From positions 14,074,001-14,138,000 of the forward strand of contig JBHGNT010000018.1 in the NCBI GenBank assembly GCA_043228905.1: a stretch of DNA of 64,000 nt. Reading direction: 5' to 3'. Origin of the DNA: Azolla caroliniana (taxonomy: Eukaryota > Plantae > Polypodiophyta). Numbering within the stretch: position 1 is the stretch's first letter; the number at the start of each line of letters is the position of its first letter. Made by a program: the position numbers and the translations under genes. The notes beneath the pieces were generated by a model. The model worked only from the letters and a program-made list of their open reading frames with translations. It had not been told where the DNA came from and made no database searches. Positions 2,730 to 59,377 of the stretch are shown piece after piece.

Positions 2730-4962
2730 CCAGTGGGAGGAATTTTTGACTCACTTCGACTTTGTCATCATATATCGCCCCGGGATGCTGCACGGCAAAG
2801 AAAATGCTCTTTCTCGATGCTCTTATATGGAACTACGTCTAGGGGAACCTACATTTGAGCATCAAAAACAAATCCTTTTGGGTCCTAATCACCTACGATT
2901 AATGGTAGTTAATGCCCTAATAACACTTGAAGATTCCATTCGAGATCATATAGTCGTTGATGAATTTGTCAAGGATGTTTTGGATCATATCATCGCGGAT
3001 CATGCTTCTTGGTCACAGTTGAAAAACCCTGCTAATGATTATCATCAGTTCTATTGGCATGGTGGTTTTCTATTTCGACTAAACCTATTGTATGTTTCTG
3101 ATGATCCCCCATGACTACAAGTTTTAGAACATTGCCATGACTCACCAATGGTTGGATATTTTGGAGTTCGTAGAACTGTAGAATTGGTCTCTCGAAAATA
3201 TTGGTGGCCTCACCTTCGTCATTTTGTTGAGGAGTATGTTCGCAATTGTGATACATTGTGTAGATCAAAGAGTCCTCGACACCAACCCTATGGTTTACTA
3301 CAACCATTTCCCATTCCGGAAAATCCTTGGAAGTCTATCTCCTTGGATTTCATTACCGATCTTCCCGATTCAAAAGGTTTTGATGCAATTCTCATGGTGG
3401 TTGATTGACTTACCAAAATGGCACATTTCTTGTCATGTATGAAGTCTATTACTAGTCAAGAGGCGGTCGATCTAGTTATGCAAGAGGTATTTAAGCATCA
3501 TGGTCTTCCGGATGATATTATTAGTGATCGTGGTCCACAATTCATCTCAAAGTTTTGGAAGCACATGTTCAAACTTCTTTGAATTTTGGCTAAGCTTTCT
3601 TTGGGCTATCATCCTGAGACTAATGGTCAAATTGAGTGTACCAACCAGACTTTGGAGCAATATCTTCGTTGTTTCATTAACTACCAACAAGATGATTGGG
3701 TTGATTTTTTGCACTTGACTGAATTCACTTACAACAACTCAATCCATTCTTCTACAGGATATTCCCCATTTTTCGCAAATATGAGTTGTCATCCTCGGTG
3801 GACAATGAATGCGCATCCAGACATTCCTACCAACCCTACTGCTGAGGATCTTCTTAGTCGCCTCCAACAAATTCACACTACCATTCTCCATAATTTGCAT
3901 GATACTCAAGTTACACACAAGAGGCATGTGGATCGTCATCGCCTAGACTCCTCCAAAATGTTCTGTGTTGGGGATCGTGTATGGCTTCTCCACCACAACG
4001 TCAAGACCACTTGGCGTTGCTGTAAATTGGATTACCAACGTTTTGGCCCGTACATGATCACTGGTAAGATAAGTGATGTTGCATTTCGTCTTGAACTCCC
4101 TCCGCACATCCGTCTTCATCTAGTGTTTCATGTATCCCTTTTGGAACCTTACACCACAAGTTCAATTCCAGGCCATCTTACAACTCCTCCGTCACCTATT
4201 GAGTTCTTGGAAGGACCCGAATTTGAGGTTGTTGCCTGATTCTTGATTCTAAAATTGTGCGCAAAAAGTTGTATTACTTGGTTGATTGGTTAGGCTATAC
4301 CCCAAATGATCGAACTTGGGAACCTACAACAAATCTTTCCAATGTCGTGGTACCACATTTCATTGCCAATATCCTCATAAACCAGGTCCTAGTACAAACC
4401 CTATGACCCATGAGACATGTTGTTGAAAAAGAAGGATAGTGTCATCTTGATGACACTCATATTATGCCTTGAAAGGATTTGAACCCACGACCTTGCACAC
4501 ATATCAAATCCTTAACCATTGTCATAATATGCTTATATGTATAGTTGTTAGAATATATAATTTAATATCATAAGAATATTCTATCACTCTACATTCTAGA
4601 ATGACGTAGAATATTGTAGAGTGTTCTATATACTAGAACCTTCTAGAATACTCTAGAAACCTTCTACATTAATCTATACTCTAGAATGTCCTAGAATATT
4701 CTAGAGTGTTCTATATACTAGAACCTTCTAGAATACTCTAGAAACCTTTTACATTAATCTATACTCTAGAATGTCCTAGAATATTCTAAAGTGTTCTAGA
4801 TTACTCTACGGGAACTTATAAATAGGGATCTATCAATCATCCCAAAACCAAATTGGTTCAACGTCATTCTATAGCTCTCTTTTGCCTACTCTTTGTAATC
4901 CTTCTTACAATGCAATATAATACTCTCCTTTCAATTCTCTCTCTCTCTCTTCTTCTTCTTCT

Positions 4963-5035
<73 letters not shown>

Positions 5036-5037
5036 AA

Positions 5038-5039
<2 letters not shown>
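2730..5039 (+). mobile_element. 3' part of a Tcn1/Sushi-like chromovirus (RNase H end, integrase, chromodomain, PPT, 3' LTR 4440-5039)
   Basis: WEEFLTHFDF..YRPG; PWKSISLDFITDLP; YHPETNGQIE; GPY...VFHVSLLEPY; frameshifted chromodomain ([19 protein letters not shown]). Purine tract before TGTCA at 4440; TAACA at 5039. Confidence 0.88.
4596..4800 (+). promoter_or_regulatory. Heat-shock-element array (tandem ~85-bp units) in LTR U3
   Basis: Multiple nGAAnnTTCnnGAAn, e.g. aGAAccTTCtaGAAt at 4635-4649, in ~2.4 tandem 85-bp copies upstream of TATAAATA (4817). Confidence 0.7.

Positions 5040-5090
<51 letters not shown>
4936..5090. repeat. (CT)n/(CTT)n and (TA)n microsatellites
   Basis: Directly visible; (TA)n at 5041-5090 abuts the LTR end. 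Confidence 0.95.
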
Positions 5091-13023: not shown

Positions 13024-14620
13024 TGAGAATCAAACTTAACTTCCCTAGTGTCGGAACACAACTTAACATATTCAAGTGTGTGAACACCGCACCTCCTAAT
13101 ATAGTAACTATTGTGTCATAGAAGCTTAAATTTCTATGACACATATTTAGTGTAGTTGAGTCTCCACCTCTGTTTAGTAAGTGGTGGTTGTATAGAGAGA
13201 AGGTGACTACATAAGTATTGAGAAACGAATCGTCAAATCCACAAAAGGAAAGAAGGGAATATACTAAAATACATTATTAACTCAGAAGCACAGAAAACAG
13301 TGTACACAGATTTAACGTTGAAACCCTAAATCGGGTGAAAACCACGAAGAACGGAGCTTCACTATACAATGGATATATACAACAACAAGATCAGAGTACA
13401 ACACTCTCTATGCAGAGTGTAAACAGCCCCGAAGGACTCTTGGCGTGCGGCGAAATCACAGGGACTAAGGTTTAAGAGGAGTTGAAGAAACTTTAATAAA
13501 GCTTGCGCACAAATGTTAGGAAGATTAAGGATAAGAAGAATAAGAGTTAAAAGTATTGTGTGACAAAGAGACGAGCATAGATTAGAGACAAAGACCATAT
13601 ATGACTTAAGAAGCAAGGGTATATTATATTAACATGATTTATATTAAGAATATAAGATTTTACCACAAAGATTCAAGATAGCAGGAATAAAAGTTGAAAG
13701 TAATGTGCGAGAGAGAGACGAACAAGGATGAGAGATAGAGACAATGTATGATTAAAGAGGTAAGAAAATATGATAAGAATATGTATTATATTAAAAACCC
13801 AAGATTTTACCAAAGTTACAATGTCGATCACAAGATGCGACTTTTCTTTTGTTGAACTGTAGATTTGAACCCTTGCCTCCAACTTCGAAACACAAGCCTC
13901 TTCCCAAATGAGCTAACTTGTTTGTTTGATAATATTATTTCTCTAACTTTCTCTTCTTGATTGATTCCCTTTTCTTTTCCTTTCCCCTCTTTTTATAAGT
14001 ATTTCCATGCATATGGTAATGGCATGCATGTAATGCATGCGTTGCATGTGATGCATGATCGCCATTTGGCGCACATGCATTGCATGTGATGCATGATAGC
14101 CATCATGCTCATTTGAGCTCCCTTGTATGAAAATATATATGGGATAAGTATAATGATGGATATAACCCTAAAACAAATAACCTAGCTTAGTGGTGTATGC
14201 TTTGTGCTTGATATACAAGGTTGGGGGTTCAAGTCCCTCAATTTTACTTAATACAATATTTAAGTTTATTCCCTCAATTTTACTTAATACAATATTTAAG
14301 TTTATTCTTATATAGTGAAGCACACTAAAAACAAATAGCCTACCCTAGTGGTATATACATTGTGCTTGGTTTATAAGGTCGTGGATTCAAGTGTCTCATA
14401 TACTATAATATACAATACTTAAGTTCATTTTTATATCGTGAAGCACATTCTTCACGACAGCATATCCAGTTTTGATCACAACTACTTTCTCCATATCAAT
14501 CTCTCTCAATCTATCTTAAATACTTTCTCACTAAAGCTAGTACAAACTTCAAATCCTTCCGGTCTAGAACCCCGGTGGTTCCGCCTCATGATCCGCACAT
14601 AATGACGGATTTTCACGACA
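13023..14620. mobile_element. Stack of nested LTR fragments: copia-type LTR (~13023-13400), Trp-family-like LTR ending ACGACA at 14459, Trp-family U5 end 14460-14620
   Basis: Copia LTR motif at ~13310-13345. ACGACA termini at 14459 and 14620. U5 motif aaccccggtggttcc shared with LTRs 46440-47203 and 50003-50813. Confidence 0.6.
14183..14240 (+). ncRNA. tRNA-derived Pol III module (A/B boxes, T arm and anticodon arm retained) inside an LTR; second copy ~14340-14398
   Basis: A box TAGCTTAGTGG (14183), B box GGTTCAAGTCC (14226), T stem GGGGG/CCCTC, anticodon-like stem TTGTG/TACAA. No good acceptor stem. Confidence 0.55.
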
Positions 14621-40805: not shown

Positions 40806-43590
40806 TGTCATGATATGGCAAAACTCGAACCCATGACCTTATGTTATATGGGTCGAGCTCTTGACCATTATACCATCTATTGTAATACGTAGGATATTAT
40901 TTTCATTTAAGTTTTATTATAGGAAATTAATGTATATTCTAGATTTCTCTGGAACATTCTAGAAGCTTCAAGATTACTCCTAAGAACACTATAAAAGAAG
41001 GCACTAGGCATTAAGTTGAACCAAATTTGTTCAACACCAGTTTTAAGCCTCTTAGCCACTTTGTACTTATCCTTCACATAATATATTAGTTGTTATCATC
41101 ATCTCTCTCTCTCTCATCCTCGCTATCTCTCTCTCCTCTTCTCTCTTTCTCTCTCGGGAATCTTACGCAGTCCCGTCCTCTTAGTACTAATAGTACTTCT
41201 CTTCTTTAGTACTAATTCTCTCTCTGCATTAGTACTATTCCTGACAGTTTGAACCAATTTTTTCCTCAAGCCTACTTGTCGTTCTCCCTCATCCTCCTAC
41301 CCTTTTCCCTATACTATGGCTACAGTTAGCGCCCAAGAATATCAATCCGTTTTCTCTTAGCTATAGTGCCTAAAAGAAAAACTTGTTTCCTTGGAACAAG
41401 AAAACCAACGGCTGGCAACAAATCACTCTAGAAAAACAACAAACGCAGCAACAACATGGGGAGTTAGCGTTATAGGTACAACAACTTGAAGCAGCATTGC
41501 AACAACAAGGATCGAGTCCCCAAGGATTTCATAAAGAGCCGAAGATTGGACTTCCTGTGAAATTTGATGGAACGCGATCGCAATTCCGGGGTTTCCTTAA
41601 TTAGGTACGATTAGTCATCCAAATGCATCCTTCCCGATACCCCACTAATGCATCCCGAGTCGGCCTAATAGGCACGTTGCTTAGCGGCTCAACCTTAGCA
41701 TGGTTCGCTCCAATTCTAGAAAAACAATTGCTCTTGCTTAAAAACTTTGAAGATTTTATTAGTGAGTTTAAAGCCTGCTTTGGAGACACCGACAACATTA
41801 GGACGACGATCAATAAGATCCGACGATTGCGTCAAGGCGATCATCCAGCCTCTGCCTACGCGGCGGATTTCCATCTACTCGCTTCAGATATCCCCTGGGA
41901 TGATCAAGCACTAATGGAGTAGTTTCGCTACGGCCTGCGAAACGATGTCAAAGATCTACTTCTAACATTCCCTGAAGAACCAAAGTCTCTTACGGAGGCA
42001 ATCACTCGAGCGGTTCGATGTGACAACCGCCTTTTCGAACGGCGTTCGGAACGTCAATTACAGATACCACGCTCTAGGCCGGAGCCCACTTACGCCTCAG
42101 TCACGGCTAAACCGTTTGCACGAGACATACCTTAAGCAAATACTCCGACACCGATGGAGATCGATACCATGCGTCCACGTGGCCCATTATCAGAAGAAGA
42201 AAAGCAACGACGACATGCAAATCGATTATGTCTTTATTGCGGTGGACTAGGGCATATCGCAATCAATTGTCCCCATAGGCCAAGAAGACAGGTAAATCAA
42301 TTGCGGTGGACTAGGGCAAACCCTAAACCCGAGTCAATTCTTCCCTTAGGAGTGTCTGATAGTATTAATAGTACTAATAGAGTGTTTGATAGTATTAATA
42401 GTACCGATAGCCCAAGTATCTCAAACAAATTTGAAATCCCTAGTCAATTAGATGAAGAGTTAAACGATTGAGTCTAGCCAAAATAGGAGCCGTTTGGTTG
42501 GACAGCCCTGGATCTATACAACCCATTAGTGGTTCCATTCCCTCCAAGCAAGTTAGCAATGTGTTCGTAGCCCAAGTCATGGTTAGTACTAAAAGTACTC
42601 CCCCAGTACATGTCCTAGCACTTCTAGATTCTGGAGCTAATTCTTGTTTCATGGATCGAAATTTTGCCCAAGCTTCTCAAATATCCTTAAGAAAACTTCC
42701 TTGCCCCGCATCTGTAGAAGTCATTGATGGTTGTCCCATTGCTTCCAGGAATATTGTAGAAGAGTCAAAACCCATTCAAGTTGTCCTAGGTAGTTTTGTG
42801 TGTGTAGTATCATTTACTATAATTAGTGGTCTAAAGCATCACATTGTCCTGGGATTACCTTGGTTTGAATTACATAATCCAGACATTGATTGGAGAACAA
42901 GAGAAGTCTGACATCGACAACCCCAAGGATCTACTCATCGAGTTTCGACCATTTCACTACGTCAATTACGCGAAGAATGACACAAGGAGGCAATGTTCCT
43001 ATTTGCAATATCAATACATCCTTCCAGCCCTATTAAAGAGAAATCCTTAGTAGAACTTCCGGTGAAATATCATCCTTATGCCAATGTATTTGACAAGGTA
43101 AAAGCCGATACTCTTCCTCATCATCGTCCCTATCACGACGTTCATATCTTGCACCTCGTCCTGGTGATCCAGTGTTTGAGAATCAAAAACAAGTAATCTT
43201 GGGACCAACACGATTGCACACAACGCGAATTTTTCACACCCCAATGGATTCCCGGATTACCGAGGCCATACATGCGAACTTGAAGATAGACAGTTTTGCT
43301 CAAGACATTCTGGCGCACATTGATACCTCTCGGACATCCTGTTCCTAGTCTCAGCAAGCAGGTATGGACTACCGACAATTCAAATATCATGATGGTTTGT
43401 TATTCTTTAAAAAGCTTGTATATGTCCCTGATTGCTCTTGTCGCCTTCAAATCGTCCAAAGTTGTCACGACCCCATATGGCGGGACAGTTCGGTAGCACT
43501 AAGACGTTGGATCTTGTTCAACGATCCTTTTGGTGGCCCCATATGCGACGTTTTGTCGACGACTACGTTCAGACCTGTGATGCTTATACC
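40806..43590 (+). mobile_element. Tcn1/Sushi-like chromovirus, 5' part (LTR 40806-41246, self-priming PBS, gag, PR, deleted pol)
   Basis: TGTCA...TGACA. PEG10-like gag (LPVKFDG.RS.FRGFL; MEID..RGPLS.EEKQRR...LCLYCG..GH....CP), protease ALLDSGA, integrase HHCC remnant. Confidence 0.9.
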
Positions 43591-46500
43591 AGTTCTCATC
43601 CTCATTCTACGCTTATACCGGTTCTCATACATTGTGCTCCCCATCCTTATATAGTGATGAGAAAGAAAGATATATTAACGTCTTCTAAGGCCAAAATTGG
43701 CCCATGAGAGAGTCTTAGCAATCCATGCTTTTTCTCTAACTATAGACTATATGCTTTCTCTAACATGCTTCTTCTAAAAGTGATCATGGTTTTTCTAACC
43801 TCATGCGTTTTTATCGACTATAGTGTTCATGCATGCTAGATGTGCATGTGTAGCTTTTTTCTATCATGCGTTTTTCTTCTAACTAAAGCTTTTTTCTAGA
43901 AAATATACATGTAAAAAACCTTTCTATGTTGGATATATGCTTTTCTAACACTTATGATGTGTTAGTTTAATGGTAAGGCTTTATATTATTAACATGGAAG
44001 TACAAGGTTCGAATCTCACGTTAGAGTTGACAATCTTCATGTTAGAGCCCTCCTTTGTTGAGATCTCATCCTCGGTAACACCCTTCAAATCCTCTTGGTC
44101 CTTGTCATCTGTGGTAGTGTGCCTGCTTGGCCTCTTCCTCATGTTCACCGGCCTCGATTGTTTCGACCTCCGATTGAGTCGTATTAGCTTCTTTCCGATT
44201 CGTTCTCGTCCAATCGGCTTTCGATTGGATTCGTATTCGGATGAATTGGACTCGGTTGATCGGTTTCGACCGAGTCGGCCCCCTTCCGGTTCAGGTTCGA
44301 CCCATCGGTTTCGGTCTGGGTTGACTTTCTTTTCTTCATGTTCACCGGATTCGACCGATTCGACTTCTGGCTGAGTCGGATTAGCTTCTTTCCGATTCGG
44401 TCTCGTCCGATCAGCTTCTGGATCAAACAATTTCCGTCTGGGTCGGGCTCGACCGTTTCAATTTCAACTGAATCCACTTCTGCTTGGTTCGTCTTTTGTT
44501 TAGATCGGAGGATCATCTTCCATCCGAACCGGCTTCTGACTTTACCTTCCTTGCCGCCATCTCTCGTCTCTCTGGTCTCACGTTAGTTCTTGGACACAAC
44601 CGCCAAAGTCTCTAGAATTAGTTGGCAGGAATCCTCGGTATTACCGTCTTTCATCGTTTCTCCCATAGCCACCTTCTCAGCTATCTCTCTGTCGTATGTG
44701 ATGAGGTAGAGATGATAGAAAGGAGAGATAAGGAAGATAAACAAACCCAAAACCACAAAGATCTATTTCTAATGAATAATTATGATGGAAGGAAGAGAGA
44801 AAGAAGATACATAAATCCAAGTCTACAAGGATAAATTGATAACAACTCAACCAACACTACGTGAATAGGCAAGAAAACATCACAACAAAGAGACTCTCTC
44901 TACACCACCTTACTCTTCTTCCTTTATATAAAGTTCTCTTCCACTGGATAAGCTTCCCTTGCTTTCTTTTTTATGCTTTGTTTAGAGTTTTCATCGAGTC
45001 CTATTCTTATCTATGACACAACGATCTTCAAATCCTCATATCTCCCTCTTGCAAGCTCTAAATTTATGGATAGCTCTCTTCACAAGCTTTCCAACCCATA
45101 TTTGCACATTATATTTGGCTTCCAAACGAATGAGTTATGAGCATTCGTTGCAGACTGCGTTTTGGTGCCCACGTTTTTCTTCTTTTACTTTTCTCCACGT
45201 GTCTTGCTTTTTGTTTGACTTATCCTCAAGACCTTAGCTCGTGATCTTGCCCTCCGGATGTGAATGCACCATACCTTATATTCTTGTAGACTTCAATACC
45301 TTGAATTCTAAAAACACTTTCACAGTATGCATCAGGTTCGACCTTCGTTTTCTCTCCGCCATCTTCCGTCTCTTCGGTCTCACGTTGCCTTCCGAACACA
45401 ACCACCGAAGTCTCTGGAATTAGTGGTGGGAAAGTCTCGACATGGCCATTCGTCATTGACTCATCCATAGCCATCTCCGACTCGATGTCATCTTTCGTGT
45501 CTACCTCCTTAATCATGTCCGCCTTGCACTCTTTATCTCCCTCGATAATGCAAGCATCGATTATGCTTACCCCTTTTTCACTCGATGTTTCGGACACTTG
45601 TGTCCCGAAACCTTCTTCCACCCTTGAAGTAGCATTCGCCACTCTCAAGGCATCGGCTTTATCCTTGGTCGTTGTTCTTTTGCAAGAAGAGAGGATAGAT
45701 TGTTCCACACCCTCTCCTGTAGTACTATCATATTGTATTTCGGCCTTCATATCGGCGACATCATTCATTCTCAATCGATCATCCCTCATGGACCATGTTG
45801 ATGCCAACGAGATTCTCGTCTTCCTCTTATCATGTCTCCAACATACTCTTTCGACTTTGGCCCAATCCTCGGTGAGGCCATTTGCACCGTCATCATCTTC
45901 AAGTTCGATCCTGATGGCCATCCTTTCTTTCCAATCGATCGATCTTACAAACATTAGGACTTTATCCTCCCCCACCAATCTTTGTTCCCGCTCCGAGAGT
46001 TGAGCAAAATGATACTCGAACTCTAGGAATGCTTTTGTCGCGCTTTGGTGGATCTTCACTGATGCAACCAACTCGTCGAACTCACGCCGATCTCATCCCT
46101 TCGGTCTCTCATAGTCATATGCCTCTCGCAAAGCTTCTTCAAAGGACCCCCATGTTGGGTTTTGTTGCCGCATCTTGTGGATTCTCTCTTGTAGCTCATC
46201 CGGGGCCACCCGACTGAAGGATATCATCATCGCCACCTTGTAGTCACATAGATAACGTGACACATCCTCTCTATTTAATTGCCCGTTTCTTTGCACAAGC
46301 CGCTCTATTGCCGATTTGATTTCCGACATCAAGCGTTGTTCTTGTAATATGCGGTTGAGCATCATTGTCATCATGGTCATCGCCTCTTGTTGATTCTCCA
46401 TCTCCTTGCCACCTGTCTTCACATCGGGTTCACCAACTGTGTCGTGCCTTTGGGCACCGGATCATTGTGTGAGTCGGGTGGGAACCGCCGGGGTTTAGGA

Positions 46501-47203
46501 CTAGGAGGAGGAAGAATTTGAGATTAATCTAGTTATAAATAGATTTTAAGAAAGAGATATAAAAACCTCGTGAATCCCACGAGTGTAATGTATTTTATTT
46601 AATCAATATTAAGATAAGAATATGAATTTGGATTGAAAGAGAAAGATATAGAAACCTCGTGAATCCCATCAGTATAGTTTATTTCGTGAATCCCACGAAC
46701 ATAATTTATTAATTGGTGTTTTTTTAGAAATATATCCAATTTCCAAAGTTTTCACACCTATTATATTGTGCTCCCCATCCTTATATAGTGATGAGAGAGT
46801 CTTAGCAATCCATGCTTTTTATCTAACTATAGACTATATGCTTTCTCTAACATGCTTCTTCTAAAAGTGATCATGCTTTATCTAACCTCATGCGTTTTTA
46901 TTGACTATAGTGTTCATGCACGCTAGATTTGCATGTGTAGCTTTTTTCTATCATGCGTTTTTCTTCTAACTAAAGCTTTTTCCTAGAAAATATGCGTGAT
47001 AAAAACCATTCTATGTGGGATATATGCTTTTCTAACACTTATGATGTGTTAGTCTAATGGTAAGGCTTTACATTATTAACATGGAGGTACAAGGTTCGAA
47101 TTTTGCCCTATGCATGTAATATACATTTCTTTCTTTTTCTTTATATTTATTAAATTTGGTACTTTATACGTTTTTCACGTACTGTACGAAATACACTACG
47201 ACA
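43590..47203 (-). mobile_element. Pol-less tRNA-Trp-primed element (5' LTR 46440-47203, PBS 46418-46435, gag-like ORFs, partial second LTR ~43590-44030)
   Basis: TGT...ACA LTR ends (TGTCGT/ACGACA). PBS TGGTGAACCCGATGTGAA. 43630-44010 duplicates 46765-47100. ORF 45226-46071 is homologous to 437-1492. Confidence 0.8.
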
Positions 47204-53000: not shown

Positions 53001-54010
53001 TCTTCTATTGATAATTTAAATCGTAAAAGCCAAGTAAATGTGGAAGACATTTGGGTGATGCTTCTTAAACATCGGATTCTGGAAACAGATGATCAGGTGT
53101 CAGGAATTATGGAGGAACTTTCCTGTGTGGATACCATTGGAGAGTTGGAAAATTCTTTGTATTCAAATGAAGATCAATCATTTTTTATTCCGGCCAATTC
53201 AGTGGATATGTATGTTGAAATTGCAACATTTCAAAATCGGATGGATATGGTTTCTCGCGTCCATACTAAATATAAGACAGTGGATCGGAAAGTTCGACAT
53301 GTAGCGGAACCATTGCCGGCTGATAGCATAGATCGGCTAAAAAGGGTGAAGGAAGAACCAATGTTACGGGATCCGAAGATGATTGGTCATGTGTTTACGG
53401 AGTCTTCGCAAGGGAAGCTTCAGATAGGAGGGGGTGATTTCCTTAATCAAGCTGAAGAAAGCCAATTTCGAAAGATGTTATCTCAACATGGTAAGGCTTT
53501 TGCTTTTTCACCTTCAGAGATAGGTTGTGTGGACCCACAACTGATGGAGCCAATGATTATCTTTACTGTCCCTCATATGCCTTGGAACTTGAAACCAATT
53601 CCTGTTCCAAGAGCTCATATTCCGAAACTCATTGAGTTGCTAAAAGAGAAGGTGCAGATGGGTATCTTGGAGCCTTCGAATGCTCCGTATTCTAACCGGT
53701 GGTTTATAGTGCCAAAAAAGAATGGATCTCTCTGGTTCATTCAAGATCTCCACCCAGTTAACAAAGTAATCATTTAGAATTTAGGAGTTGGTTCCGTCGT
53801 GGATTCCTTCGCAGAATCTTTTGCAGGTAGAGCTATCTACTCCATGGCTGATTTGTATTCCGGATATGATCAATTTCAGCTTGCTTTGGATAGTAGGGAT
53901 ATTACTACAATGCGTACACCTATTGGGCTGGTTCGAATGTGTACTTTACCACAAGGCGCAACTAATTTTGTCACTCATATGATGAACACAATGAATAAGG
54001 TGCTCAAGGA
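50003..54010 (+). mobile_element. tRNA-Trp-primed non-chromovirus-like Ty3/gypsy, 5' part (LTR 50003-50813, PBS, gag, PR, RT N-terminus)
   Basis: TGTCGT...ACGACA; PBS TGGTGAACCTAACGTGAA (50816). Gag with CLWCDNLEHQRSEC knuckle; ALIDSGSEINLM protease; RT ..YSNRWFIVPKKNGSL.FIQDL..VN, DLYSGYDQ, LPQGATN. Truncated at ~54010, so the 3' end cannot be examined. Confidence 0.88.
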
Positions 54011-56940
54011 TCAGAGCATCCTCTTCTTTATCTCCTTGTTGAGAAAGGATGCTATCGAGGGCAAAATTTGATGCGTCGGCCTCCATGATGAATGGTTTGC
54101 TTGTATCCACATGAGGTAAAATAGGTGCTGATGTAAAGGCTTTCTTAAGATGCCGAAAAGCCATGTCCGCTTCATTGGACCAAAGAAATGCTTGTCCCTT
54201 CTTCGTAAGTTGTGTGAGAGGTAAAATAATCTTCGAGTAATCCTGTAGAAACTTACAGTAGAAGTTAGCAAAACCTAGAAAACATTGTACATCTTGTACC
54301 GACCGTGGAATTTGCAACTCTAGCACAGTTTGGACTTTAGCTGGATCCATGGAGATGCCCTTTGAGGAGATAACGTAGCCTAGAAATTCCACTTGCTTGT
54401 AGTCAAAGCTACATTTTTCTAGCTTGGCATAAAGACCATTCTCGTGGAGTCAGTTTAGTACTAATAATACATGAGAATCGTGCTCTTCCTGGGTCTTCGA
54501 ATAAATCAATAGATCATCCAGATAGATGATCAAACAGATATCCAAAAGGTCTCTGAATATATCATTTGCCATGTGTTGGAAGACTGCGGGTGCATTGGTT
54601 AGACCGAACGGCATAACAATATATTCGAAATGCCCATACCGCGTGCGAAAGGCGGTCTTCCATTCATCTCCTGGTCGGATCCGCACGAGGTTATACGCTC
54701 CTCGTAGATCGATTTTTGTAAAAAACTTGGCACCATTAACTCGCTCTAAAAGACTTGATATCAGAGGAAGTACATACCTTTTCTGAATGGTGACCTTATT
54801 TAAGTTGTGGTAATCAACAACGAAATGAAATGAGCCATCTTTCTTCTTGACAAAGAAGATGGGTGCTCCAGCTGGAGATTTCGAATGACGAATAAACCCG
54901 CTTGCCAAGTTCTCCTCTATGTAGGCTAAAAGGACTTCTAACTCGGTGGGTGACAAGTTGTAGATTGGTCCCCATGGTGGCTCTGCTCCTGGTTGTAAAT
55001 TGATTGGACAATCATAGCGACCATGATGAGGAAGAGTACCGGCTTTTACCTTGTCAAATACGTCGGCATAACTATGATATTTTGCAGGAAGTTGCACTAA
55101 GGATTCCTTCTTAATATTGTTGGAAGGATGTACTGATATGGCAAATAGGAAGATTTCCTCCTTGTGTCCTTCTTCGCGTAGTTGACGTAGTGAAATGGTC
55201 GAAACTCGATGAGTAGATTCTTGGGGTTGTCGATATTGGACTTCTCTTGTTCTCCAATCTATGTCTGGATTATGTAGTTCAAACCAAGGTAATCCCAGGA
55301 CAATGGGATGCTCTGGACTACTAATTATATTAAATGATACTACACACACAAAACTACCTAGGACAACTTGAATGGGTTCTGACTCTTCTACAATATTCCT
55401 GGAAGCAATGGGACGACCATCAATGACTACTATAGATGTGGGGCAAGGAAGTTTTCTTAAGGATATCTGAGAAGCTTGGGCAAAATTTCGATCCATGAAA
55501 CAGGAATTGGCTCCGGAATCTAAAAGTGCTAGGACTTGTACTGGGGGAGTACTTTTAGTACTAACCATGACTTGGGCTACGAACACATTGCTAACTTTCT
55601 TGGAAGGAATGGAACCACTAATGGGTTGTACAGATCTAGGGCTGTCCAACCAAACGGCTCCTATTTTGGCTGGACTCAATCGTTTAACTCTTCATCTAAT
55701 TGACTAGGGATTTCAAATTTGTTTGAGATACTTGGGCTATTGGTACTATTAATACTATCAAACACTCTATTAGTACTATTAATACTATCAGACACTCCTA
55801 AGGGAAGAATTGACTCGGGTTTAGTACAGGCTACAATTTGATTTACCGGTCTTCTTGGCCTATGGAGACAATTGATTGCGATATGCCCTGGTCCACCGCA
55901 ATAAAGACATAATCGATTTGCACGGCATCGTTGCTTTTCTTCTTCCGATAACGGGCCACGTCAACGCATGGTGTCAATCTCCATTGGCGTCGCAGTATTT
56001 GCTTGAGGTACCTCGCATGCGAACGCTTTACCCATGACTCAGGCATATGTGGGCTCCAACCTAGAGCGTGGTATTTGTAATTGACGTTCAAAACGTCGTT
56101 CGAAAAGGCAGTTGTCACATCGGACCGCTCAACTGATTGCCTCCGTAAGAGATTTTGGTTCTTCGGGGAAGGTTAAAAGTAAATCTTTTACATCGTTTCG
56201 CAAGCTATAGCGAAACTGCTCCATTAGTGCCTGATCATCCCAGGGGATATCTGAGGCGAGTAGACGGAAATCCGCCACGTAGGCAGAGGCTGGACGATCG
56301 CCTTGACGCAATCGTCAGATCTGGTTGATCGTCGTCCTGATGTTGTCAGTGTCTCCAAAGCAGGCTTTAAACTCACTAATAAAATCTTCAAAGTTATTAA
56401 GCAAGGGCGATTGTTTTTCTAGAAGCGATGCCTATTAGGCCAACTCTGGATGCATCAGTGGGGTATCGAGAAGGATGCATTTGGATGACTAATCGTACCT
56501 GATTAAGGAATCCCCTGAATTGCGATCGCATTCCATCAAATTTCACAGGAAGTCCAATCTTCATCTCTTTATGAAATCCTTCGGGACTTAATCCTTGTGG
56601 TTGCAATGCTGCTTCGAGTTGTTGTACCCGTAACGCTAACTCCCCATGTTGTTGCTACGTTTGTTGTTTTTCTAGAGCGATTTGTTGCAGATCCCCTATC
56701 AACCGTTGGTTTTCTTGTTCCAAGGCAACAAATTTTTCTTTTAGGCATTGTAGCTCGGAGAAAACGGATTGATATTCTTGGGCGCTAACTGTAGCCATAG
56801 TATAGGGAAAAGGGTAGGAGGATGAGGGAGAACAACAAGTAGGCTTGAGGAGAAAATTGGTTCAAACTGTCAGGAATAGTACTAAAGCAGAGAGAGAATT
56901 AATACTAAAGAAGAGAAGTACTATTAGTACTAAGAGGACG
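54011..56940 (-). mobile_element. Tcn1/Sushi-like chromovirus (LTR end, gag, PR, RT, RH start); inverted sibling of 40806-43590
   Basis: ORF 54450-55679 with ALLDSGA, SPAGAPIFFVKKKDGS, TAFRTRYGHFEY.VMPFGL, YLDD; near-identical gag/PR to 41300-43130. Confidence 0.93.
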
Positions 56941-57724: not shown

Positions 57725-59377
57725 CACTCCACGTTATTCCCCACAAGTATAAAGACTTCTCCGATGTATTTGAGAAACATAATGCAGATCGTTTGCCCGA
57801 ACACCGGCTCTACAACTGTCCGGTCGATCTTCAAGAAGGCGTGTGTCCACCCTTTGGTTCTCTATATGCGTTGTCTGCACTAGAGCTATGGGCCCTTCGA
57901 GTGTATCTCGATGAGAACCTTGCGAAAGGATTTATTCAACCTTCTAAGTCGCCAGGTGGGGCCCCCATATTATTTGTGAAGAAGATGGACTGCCCTCTAC
58001 GCTTATGTGTCGACTACTAGGGTTTCAACAAACTCACTGTGTGCAACTACTATCCGCTCCCTCTGATTCCCGAACTCCTCGACCGGCTCCGCGTTGCACG
58101 TGTCTGAACTCCAAAGTTTATCTACGTGATGCATACAATCTAGTACGCATCAAGCCCGATGATGAATGGAAAAGCGCATTCCAAACACGGTATGAGAATT
58201 TCGAATGCAAGGTAATGCCTTTCGGCCTTACTAATGCCCTGACTATTTTTCAATATATGATGTTCAACGATATAATCCGAGAATATCTCGATCATTTCAT
58301 GGTCATCTACCTTGATGATATTCTCATTTTTTTTGCCAAACATGGCGGAGCACACCCGTCACATCCGATTAGTTCTTGCTAAACTTCGGGAGCACAACCT
58401 TTATGCCAAAAGTTAGAAATGTGAATTTGATCGTACCTCGATTGAATTGTTGGGGTACATCACATCATTGATGCCTTTGAAGAATGGCGCCCCTACTTGG
58501 CTGGTGCACCCTTCCGTGTCAACTTACTTTCACTTAGAGCGGAATGTGCCTACAATAATTCTCTCCATGCATCGACTGGCGTCACTCCCTTCTTTGCAAA
58601 CTATGGTTTACATCCTCGGTTCAACATTTCCCTCCCTACCATCCCGTCGCCTTCTAGCTGGCCCTTCCATCCCACATCCAGATTCATGATGTTTTTCATG
58701 TCTCCCTCCTCGAACCCCATTACGCTTCGCAACTCCTAGGACACCAAGGCCCCACACCACCACATGTACAGTTGATGATAGGGGAGGAATACGAGGTCGA
58801 CCAAATACTTGACTCACGTCTGGACTCTGCACCGTCGACACCTGCAATACCTCGTCTTGTGGAAGTATTACCCCCTGTTTGATGCCACTTGGGAACTAGC
58901 GAAGAATTTACAAAACGCCCCGAAGGTGGTCCAAGATTTTCATCTCTGGTATCCCCACAAACCGACAACTGGTTTGGGAAGGCGGCATAGGAGGGGGGAT
59001 AATGTCACATCTAGACTCGGACCTCTAACCAATAACACACCCAATACTTAGTATTAGATAAACCATTTGGAAACCCTTAAGTTACATGTAAATTGTATAT
59101 GGTTTAATATTGTATAGTCTAGCATATATAGTACATTCAGAATATTCTAGTCTTTAGTATATTCTAGAAATATTCTATGATATATTCTAGACGGGTATAT
59201 TCTAGAGATATTTCTCGAGTATACTCTAGAGATATTCAATCTCAGAACTTGTATAAATATGTGTGTTCACCTAGATTACAATCAAGGTGAACAACACCAG
59301 TTATGGAGTCTTTCAATTAATCAACTCATCCCTTTGATTATCTTCTACTCTCTGGTGCATATTTTCTATCCATGACA
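57725..59377 (+). mobile_element. Heavily deleted Tcn1-like chromovirus 3' part (RT, RH/INT snippets, chromodomain, PPT, LTR 59003-59377)
   Basis: [12 protein letters not shown]; VMPFGL; YLDD; EYEVDQILDSR...YLVLWKYY..DATWE; GGAGGGGGGA PPT; TGTCA...TGACA. Confidence 0.85.

Follow-up and report, generated by a model that had tools for sequence, protein, structure and literature searches.

The stretch of DNA analysed here (the window; 64,000 nt of the Azolla caroliniana contig JBHGNT010000018.1) is a nest of broken LTR retrotransposons, and three of its LTRs bear the sites that were originally predicted to carry an antisense, outward-facing tRNA-type promoter at the U3 edge of Tcn1-like elements. 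Element A comprises broken integrase, SH3 and chromodomain frames of Tcn1 type (3115–4385, plus strand; Pfam Integrase_H2C2, SH3_Tf2-1 and Chromo, the last with E 6e-10), a polypurine tract (PPT; 4426–4439, plus strand), which was read from the sequence and has an equal junction in 62 of 76 related loci, and a 3′ LTR (4440–5040, right end approximate, plus strand) whose TG directly follows the PPT. It shares 87 % nucleotide identity with the related locus L002, and its LTR is 68 % identical to that of element B over 249 nt. The 5′ LTR of element B (40806–41246, plus strand) sits within a Copia-type gag, and contigs break at its start, 40806, with diverse flanks. Its sequence holds a likely Pol II TATA box (40990–40995, plus strand) and a likely transcript start (R) with self-primer (41023–41034, plus strand), 11 of whose 12 nt are complementary to a self-priming site at 41249–41260 (plus strand) that replaces a tRNA primer-binding site. 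Broken gag and protease frames follow (41605–42908, plus strand; Pfam), and the element is 88 % identical at the nucleotide level to L031, in which gag and pol are open. The third LTR, C, occupies 59003–59377 with its TG at 59003. The Pfam Chromo match in element A and the self-priming site of element B support the Tcn1-type assignment.

Several further features of the window were recorded. A second, inverted copy of element B (B′, 53946–56940), 90–95 % identical to B, has an LTR that is truncated within U5 and there abuts a Copia-type gag resembling the one that hosts B, and seems to extend into the RT of a Phygy-like element (J). Between module and TATA box, the U3 regions of A (4583–4837), B and C contain palindromic XbaI-like repeats, which form 85-nt tandem units in A and are common to divergent families. 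A second chromovirus-like LTR type, present in three copies (12914, 6822 and 60074), is without the module (six to seven mismatches) and offers a useful internal negative.

On the minus strand, sites 1 and 2 each show A and B boxes with a tRNA variable-loop motif between them, in the sequence just as they had been described. Site 1 (4476–4526, minus strand, outward; profile E 6.6e-08) corresponds to tRNA positions 8–61 and is part of element A's 3′ LTR, with its B box at 4476–4485; it has no mismatch to a generic A/B-box test, and its spacing is 32 nt versus 35 in the closest relatives, the spacer being 3 nt short. Site 2 (40822–40875, minus strand, outward, tRNA positions 8–61; profile E 7.7e-11), in the 5′ LTR of element B, has one mismatch and a spacing of 35 nt, and its module was covered in five DNA-type runs. 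Whereas these two of the three predicted sites stood, the third survives only as a decayed remnant in LTR C (59013–59070, minus strand), where a B-box-like sequence with one change and an A-box at 41 nt spacing give no match to the module profile; L065, the closest relative of LTR C, has a complete module. ARAGORN found no tRNA anywhere in the window and Rfam RF00005 reported none of the three sites, which marks them as promoter boxes and not tRNA genes.

For the wider survey, 22 integrase–chromodomain homologues were aligned (alignment A1) and the DNA of relatives was retrieved via protein similarity alone. From 572 candidate stretches 513 were confirmed, and the best 80 of these were kept, giving 76 loci. 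A single series of ENA assemblies (set 1) supplied 56 of them, and other sources the remaining 20. A recognisable PPT–LTR junction with at least 110 nt beyond it was found in 62 loci, and the remaining 14 (eight from set 1, six other) were dropped. We applied a generic textbook box test that allowed a spacing of 28–42 nt. In set 1, whose contigs are collapsed high-copy assemblies and not single insertions, an A/B pair was present on the outward strand within 150 nt of the LTR start in 38 of 48 LTRs with at most one mismatch, and in 46 of 48 with at most two; the best spacing was 34–35 nt in 37 of these 46. Shuffling the 62 LTR starts gave 0.23 expected generic-test matches versus the 38 observed, and the inward strand was positive in one of 62 LTRs, in keeping with the antisense, outward orientation at the U3 edge that had been proposed. 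Four of the eight dropped set-1 loci match the module profile too, and L024 carries the module in both LTR copies. The module is confirmed as a lineage-wide trait, broader than the original prediction had it.

No module was found in the 14 Tcn1-type LTRs from other sources, which represent only about four LTR types, nor at six more junctions taken from 15 genome-contig loci; a search of viral contigs returned no relative. Beside one module-less element from another source we noted a weak tRNA-type head (L067, 3190–3244; E 1.8), possibly a SINE, and L077–L091 are eukaryotic chromovirus-like contigs that turn up in genome records of bacteria and archaea, where they probably represent contaminated assemblies. 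In public contigs from four runs and four organisms, the summed depth of the family B module was at least that of the neighbouring LTR bins, a depth that indicates many copies present and not copy number. Run X21, guessed to be RNA, contributed two contigs at a depth of ~3 and run X19 is probably DNA, neither of which informs on expression. Pol identity among ten representatives ranged from 58 to 82 %, and nine of ten module-bearing representatives formed one clade (SH-aLRT 99) in a Pol tree which, like the locus tree made by a quick method, covers the retrieved loci only. The tenth, L065, groups with module-less elements on Pol; a single module clade was not rejected (AU p 0.051), and we therefore did not retain an independent origin of the module in L065.

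Many of the module-bearing contigs of set 1 have open gag (about 330–430 aa) and pol (about 1200 aa) frames that include PR, RT, RH, IN and a chromodomain; Pfam Chromo matched all four full pol frames as well as element A, with the aromatic columns visible in alignment A1. At 13 module-bearing loci, the beginning of R and a site beyond the LTR are complementary over 12 nt (10 nt in one case). Three distinct primer sequences occur, each matched by its own site, and relatives show perfect 12-nt matches; the module-less L073 self-primes too. Further matches in L004 and L005 were rejected as spurious palindromes. Self-priming has been described for Tcn1 and Tf1/Sushi elements (PMC6317226; here and below, published work is cited from the accessible parts of each source). 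As the self-primer marks the start of R, the module falls in U3, with its B box 11–63 nt from the LTR edge. The distance from TATA to self-primer was 32–34 nt in all nine loci measured.

Conservation was assessed in 40 tRNA-numbered modules from 16 groups, leaving out identical rows together with L012, L029 and window copy A, which were mis-anchored or shortened. Kept across the 16 groups were tRNA positions 8–9, 14–19, 44–48 and 52–61, plus the 34–35 nt spacing. Anchoring itself enforces conservation at the positions it relies on, so the informative ones are those unused for it, namely T8 (0.95), purine 9 (1.00), T16 (0.90), purine 22 (1.00), A44 (0.86), G45 (0.81), G46 (1.00), T47 (1.00) and pyrimidine 48 (1.00). 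Mean conservation was 0.49–0.51 across positions 1–7, 27–43, 62–72 and the 30 nt upstream, T35 (0.84) being an exception within the poorly conserved spacer; G10 of the usual A box was also poorly kept (0.48). Between groups, identity reached 0.78 in the boxes; the spacer gave 0.32, against 0.27 after shuffling, and the upstream stretch 0.37, against 0.36. The boxes are thus far more conserved than spacer and flanks, and this test, which had been named as one that could refute the original prediction, did not do so. The 50 nt upstream of the module had an AT content of 0.80 versus 0.62 further in, in all 14 groups with enough sequence, whereas only 4.2 of 14 groups had a CAA close to the start. 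Taken across groups, these sequence comparisons argue strongly for purifying selection on the boxes at the DNA level. Within family B, variation of at least 5 % was seen in run X1 at three of 22 box positions versus 15 of 66 others, weak support for the boxes being clearly more constant than their neighbours. C56 of the B box is replaced by T in ~10 % (X1) and ~9 % (X7) of depth and G57 to A is not among the listed variants, an outcome of the CpG selection test contrary to expectation. Position 61 is T in the window copy, and C is not among the variants listed there in family B contigs, which reflects either a local majority or under-reporting of sites near the LTR edge.

The conserved boxes do not belong to a folded tRNA. 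Cloverleaf pairing was absent in the acceptor (0.23 versus 0.25), anticodon (0.27 versus 0.27) and T stems (0.22 versus 0.23), no cloverleaf stem was supported by covariation, and the anticodon positions vary among modules. At the LTR edges ARAGORN called no tRNA, and the best Rfam score was 21.4 bits, in one of 20 loci, against a cut-off of 29. We also rejected an alternative hairpin common to the groups, since not one of 1132 stems reached significance (best family-wise P 0.29). Folding energy proved no discriminator, with three real tRNA genes at z −0.75 to −2.6 and five of 25 modules below −2. In family A (L001, L004–L006, L008, L050 and L055) a 10-bp inverted repeat pairs spacer positions 21–30 with the B box, with pairing of 0.8–1.0 in seven of seven, and a comparable hairpin is seen in family B (L019 and L031; z −3.4 to −4.4); both inverted repeats are private and absent in other groups.

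What the lineage conserves, then, is a pair of boxes at fixed spacing, position and orientation from which tRNA pairing has been lost. With its conserved contacts, boxes and AT-rich upstream DNA and its lack of stem covariation, this pattern fits a type II Pol III promoter read at the DNA level, and the module is probably a selected docking site for TFIIIC and TFIIIB. Besides the B box TFIIIC contacts +44 to +47, the A box is required for TFIIIB placement rather than TFIIIC binding (PMC11724288), and plant tRNA genes are AT-rich across only the 50 nt upstream (PMC11700998). We propose that the outward tRNA-gene promoter at the U3 edge would bind TFIIIC, that TFIIIB and Pol III would thereby be positioned between the LTR edge and the Pol II promoter of the element, and that the docked complex would constitute a portable chromatin barrier that shields the Pol II promoter once the chromodomain has directed the element into heterochromatin. 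As in a tDNA-type barrier, both boxes are intact and the DNA upstream of them is AT-rich. By analogy with known barriers, we regard such shielding as a serious possibility, at somewhat short of even chances. In fission yeast, barrier activity of a tDNA depends on the A box and on Pol III but not on orientation (PMC2040200), B2 SINEs of the mouse serve as mobile boundaries (PMC8136502), and the moss chromovirus RLG1 is transcribed although located in heterochromatic islands (PMC7466625), tRNA and polymerase III being unmentioned in the accessible main text of the latter paper. Against a barrier, strict outward orientation is not required of an orientation-independent device, and the polarity may serve only to keep Pol III from transcribing into the Pol II promoter. 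Relatives of Tcn1 type from other sources have also spread without the module (none of 14, from about four LTR types), the barrier precedents are from yeast and mouse with no plant case among them, and the weak constancy of the boxes within family B and the poor conservation of G10 likewise count against it.

An outward Pol III RNA might itself matter: 3′ LTRs would send it in antisense through the PPT and the end of integrase, 5′ LTRs into the DNA beside the element, and it would tune silencing or copy number. The full promoter anatomy and fixed polarity would suit such a role, as would a T4 run within 61 nt downstream in 10.4 of 14 groups; however, the transcribed body is conserved neither in sequence nor in fold, and there is no conserved terminator. 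In just 13 of 39 rows does the first T4 fall inside the LTR, and the predicted RNA would accordingly range from 62 to more than 600 nt. We consider this explanation unlikely. Quite unlikely, too, is that sense U3 RNA, complementary to a host tRNA along its D and T arms, anneals to it in aid of dimerisation or strand transfer. Ty3 possesses such a U3 segment (PMC5371799), and annealing would require exactly the antisense orientation seen here. Nevertheless, these elements self-prime with three primer sequences, each matched, positions 10–13 and 49–51 inside the would-be helices vary freely, and G46, G53, T47, T54 and T55 lack the changes that G–U wobble would permit; nor does annealing predict a constant spacer length or AT-rich upstream DNA.

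Direct modulation of the adjacent Pol II promoter by the bound Pol III complex, with no barrier role, could take the form of nucleosome positioning, activation, or a tDNA-type repression limiting harm to the host. In all nine loci position 1 of the module lies just 107–202 nt upstream of the TATA box, facing away from it, and in budding yeast tDNAs are known to exert position effects on genes transcribed by Pol II (PMC2040200); set against this, the distance to the TATA box varies between loci and no such effect was found in the euchromatin of fission yeast (PMC2040200), and we judge modulation of this kind improbable. Equally improbable, in our estimate, is a role of the module as landing pad or decoy, attracting elements that choose Pol III promoters as integration sites, its own lineage included. 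Real tRNA genes do lie no more than a few hundred bases from the element pieces at two loci (Asn and Thr at 552–906 of L030; Asp at 128–201 of L018), but no recurrent insertion joint was found upstream of the module in contigs, element B sits inside a Copia gag with no tRNA gene nearby, and the L018 and L030 pieces, both truncated Tcn1-type, begin within pol and not at an LTR end, for which reason we rejected tRNA-gene targeting by this lineage as unsupported. That the module is a neutral remnant of a single ancient insertion, of a SINE or of a tRNA gene, is very improbable and already disfavoured: some D-stem pairing left in a few families (0.41 versus 0.36, P 0.14), a compatible single origin (AU p 0.051) and the decay of copies after insertion (sites A and C) would accord with it, but the boxes are near-invariant around a spacer close to shuffled identity, and the absence of a flanking repeat of at least 8 nt in 25 of 25 modules and of any A run longer than 4, together with the presence of the module in 46 of 48 LTRs, speaks against the independent SINE insertions that would have refuted the original prediction.

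A probable Pol III docking site in the U3 of an autonomous element has partial counterparts in known systems. Pol III promoters in LTRs are known from short, non-coding TRIMs, where they substitute for the Pol II promoter. The closest of these, Helenus (TRIMp3; Kojima, 2024, PMC10886601), resembles the module in having a tRNA-derived LTR sequence that keeps A and B boxes without a working tRNA. Helenus elements are, however, non-coding, tRNA-primed and 311–1263 bp long, whereas those described here code for gag-pol and self-prime; the Helenus tRNA part is in sense orientation in the consensus entries (Helenus-1_SMo and three ToGe), whereas here it lies antisense in U3, upstream of R, in elements that retain a TATA box. 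The available text of that paper expects the autonomous partners to use Pol II with no such LTR sequence in common, and mentions 'not a few' Repbase LTRs with tRNA-like parts in an analysis limited to TRIMs below 1 kb (PMC10886601). Cassandra TRIMs similarly place a Pol III internal promoter in a plant retrotransposon LTR, but theirs is of 5S origin, takes the place of the Pol II promoter and produces the RNA of a non-autonomous element (PMC10886601, bioRxiv 10.1101/2023.07.14.548913); Rfam scans of the window and loci gave no match to 5S rRNA. The Tcn1 clade shares a type I chromodomain, self-priming, a PPT, separate gag and pol frames and LTRs of about 415–520 nt with the elements studied here, and the accessible parts of its descriptions do not mention a tRNA-type promoter in the LTR (PMC2864245, PMC6317226, PMC3350952). 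The S. pombe cen1 tDNA barrier (PMC2040200) and B2 SINE boundaries (PMC8136502) are likewise A/B-box units, but these are host genes or free SINEs and experimentally proven barriers, whereas the module is a fixed LTR part known from sequence alone. In the bipartite primer-binding site of Ty3, U3 is similarly complementary to tRNA D and T arms, although Ty3 is tRNA-primed and pairs with one tRNA, whereas these self-priming elements conserve only generic box positions (PMC5371799). Our literature searches, with subscription papers and Repbase reports mostly outside their scope, returned no antisense tRNA-type promoter in autonomous plant LTRs, consistent with the earlier assertion that none had been described. 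That an autonomous lineage has retained, under selection, an outward Pol III promoter as its second one suggests how heterochromatin-targeting elements may stay expressed, and such a module would imply many additional TFIIIC sites in these genomes. If the proposed barrier function is true, it would provide a natural plant example of a tDNA-type barrier.

The module may extend beyond Tcn1-type elements to Phygy-like LTRs in the window, a lead that rests on single copies. A fuller module pattern, tuned on the same data, matched five times in the window versus a mean of 0.1 in 30 block-shuffled windows, and all five matches face outward near an LTR-like edge (B, E, F and G). LTR G (46440–47203, minus strand), which has LTR ends, a TGG primer site and a gag-like frame, carries an outward module (47050–47102, plus strand; profile E 2.4e-04) about 100 nt within its 5′ edge, and a second copy of its U3 segment, F, also has one (43963–44016, plus strand; profile E 7.5e-03). 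Two tandem outward modules (14183–14395, plus strand) lie near the 5′ edge (14459) of LTR E (13822–14459). Of the four Phygy-like edges, each a single copy, E and G carry the module and H and J are without it; all four begin alike, J being flanked by exact NCGN and E, G and H by one-change variants of it. Common to G, H and J is a TGG primer site, which we take to match tRNA-Trp. By target and primer site these LTRs look Phygy-like, an NCGN target and a tRNA-Trp primer site being reported for Phygy elements (supplement of PMC6317226). Tcn1 and Phygy were established in two papers on material from mosses and Selaginella, and both kinds of element appear to be present in the window. It is conceivable, though doubtful, that in this plant lineage two unrelated kinds of autonomous element, Tcn1 chromoviruses and Phygy-like non-chromoviruses, converged on or exchanged an outward tRNA-gene mimic that recruits Pol III as a self-insulator. 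If true, many Pol III-type boundary sites would be spread through heterochromatin, with elements remaining transcribable inside it.

Two minor observations concern these LTRs. In LTR E, a third head (13863–13915, minus strand) points out of the apparent left end, so that tRNA-type heads face outward at both ends. The U3 segment is near-identical between F (43628–44032) and G, with 95 % identity over 311 nt, while the LTR edges and R/U5 differ, and U3 swapping between the two elements is possible.
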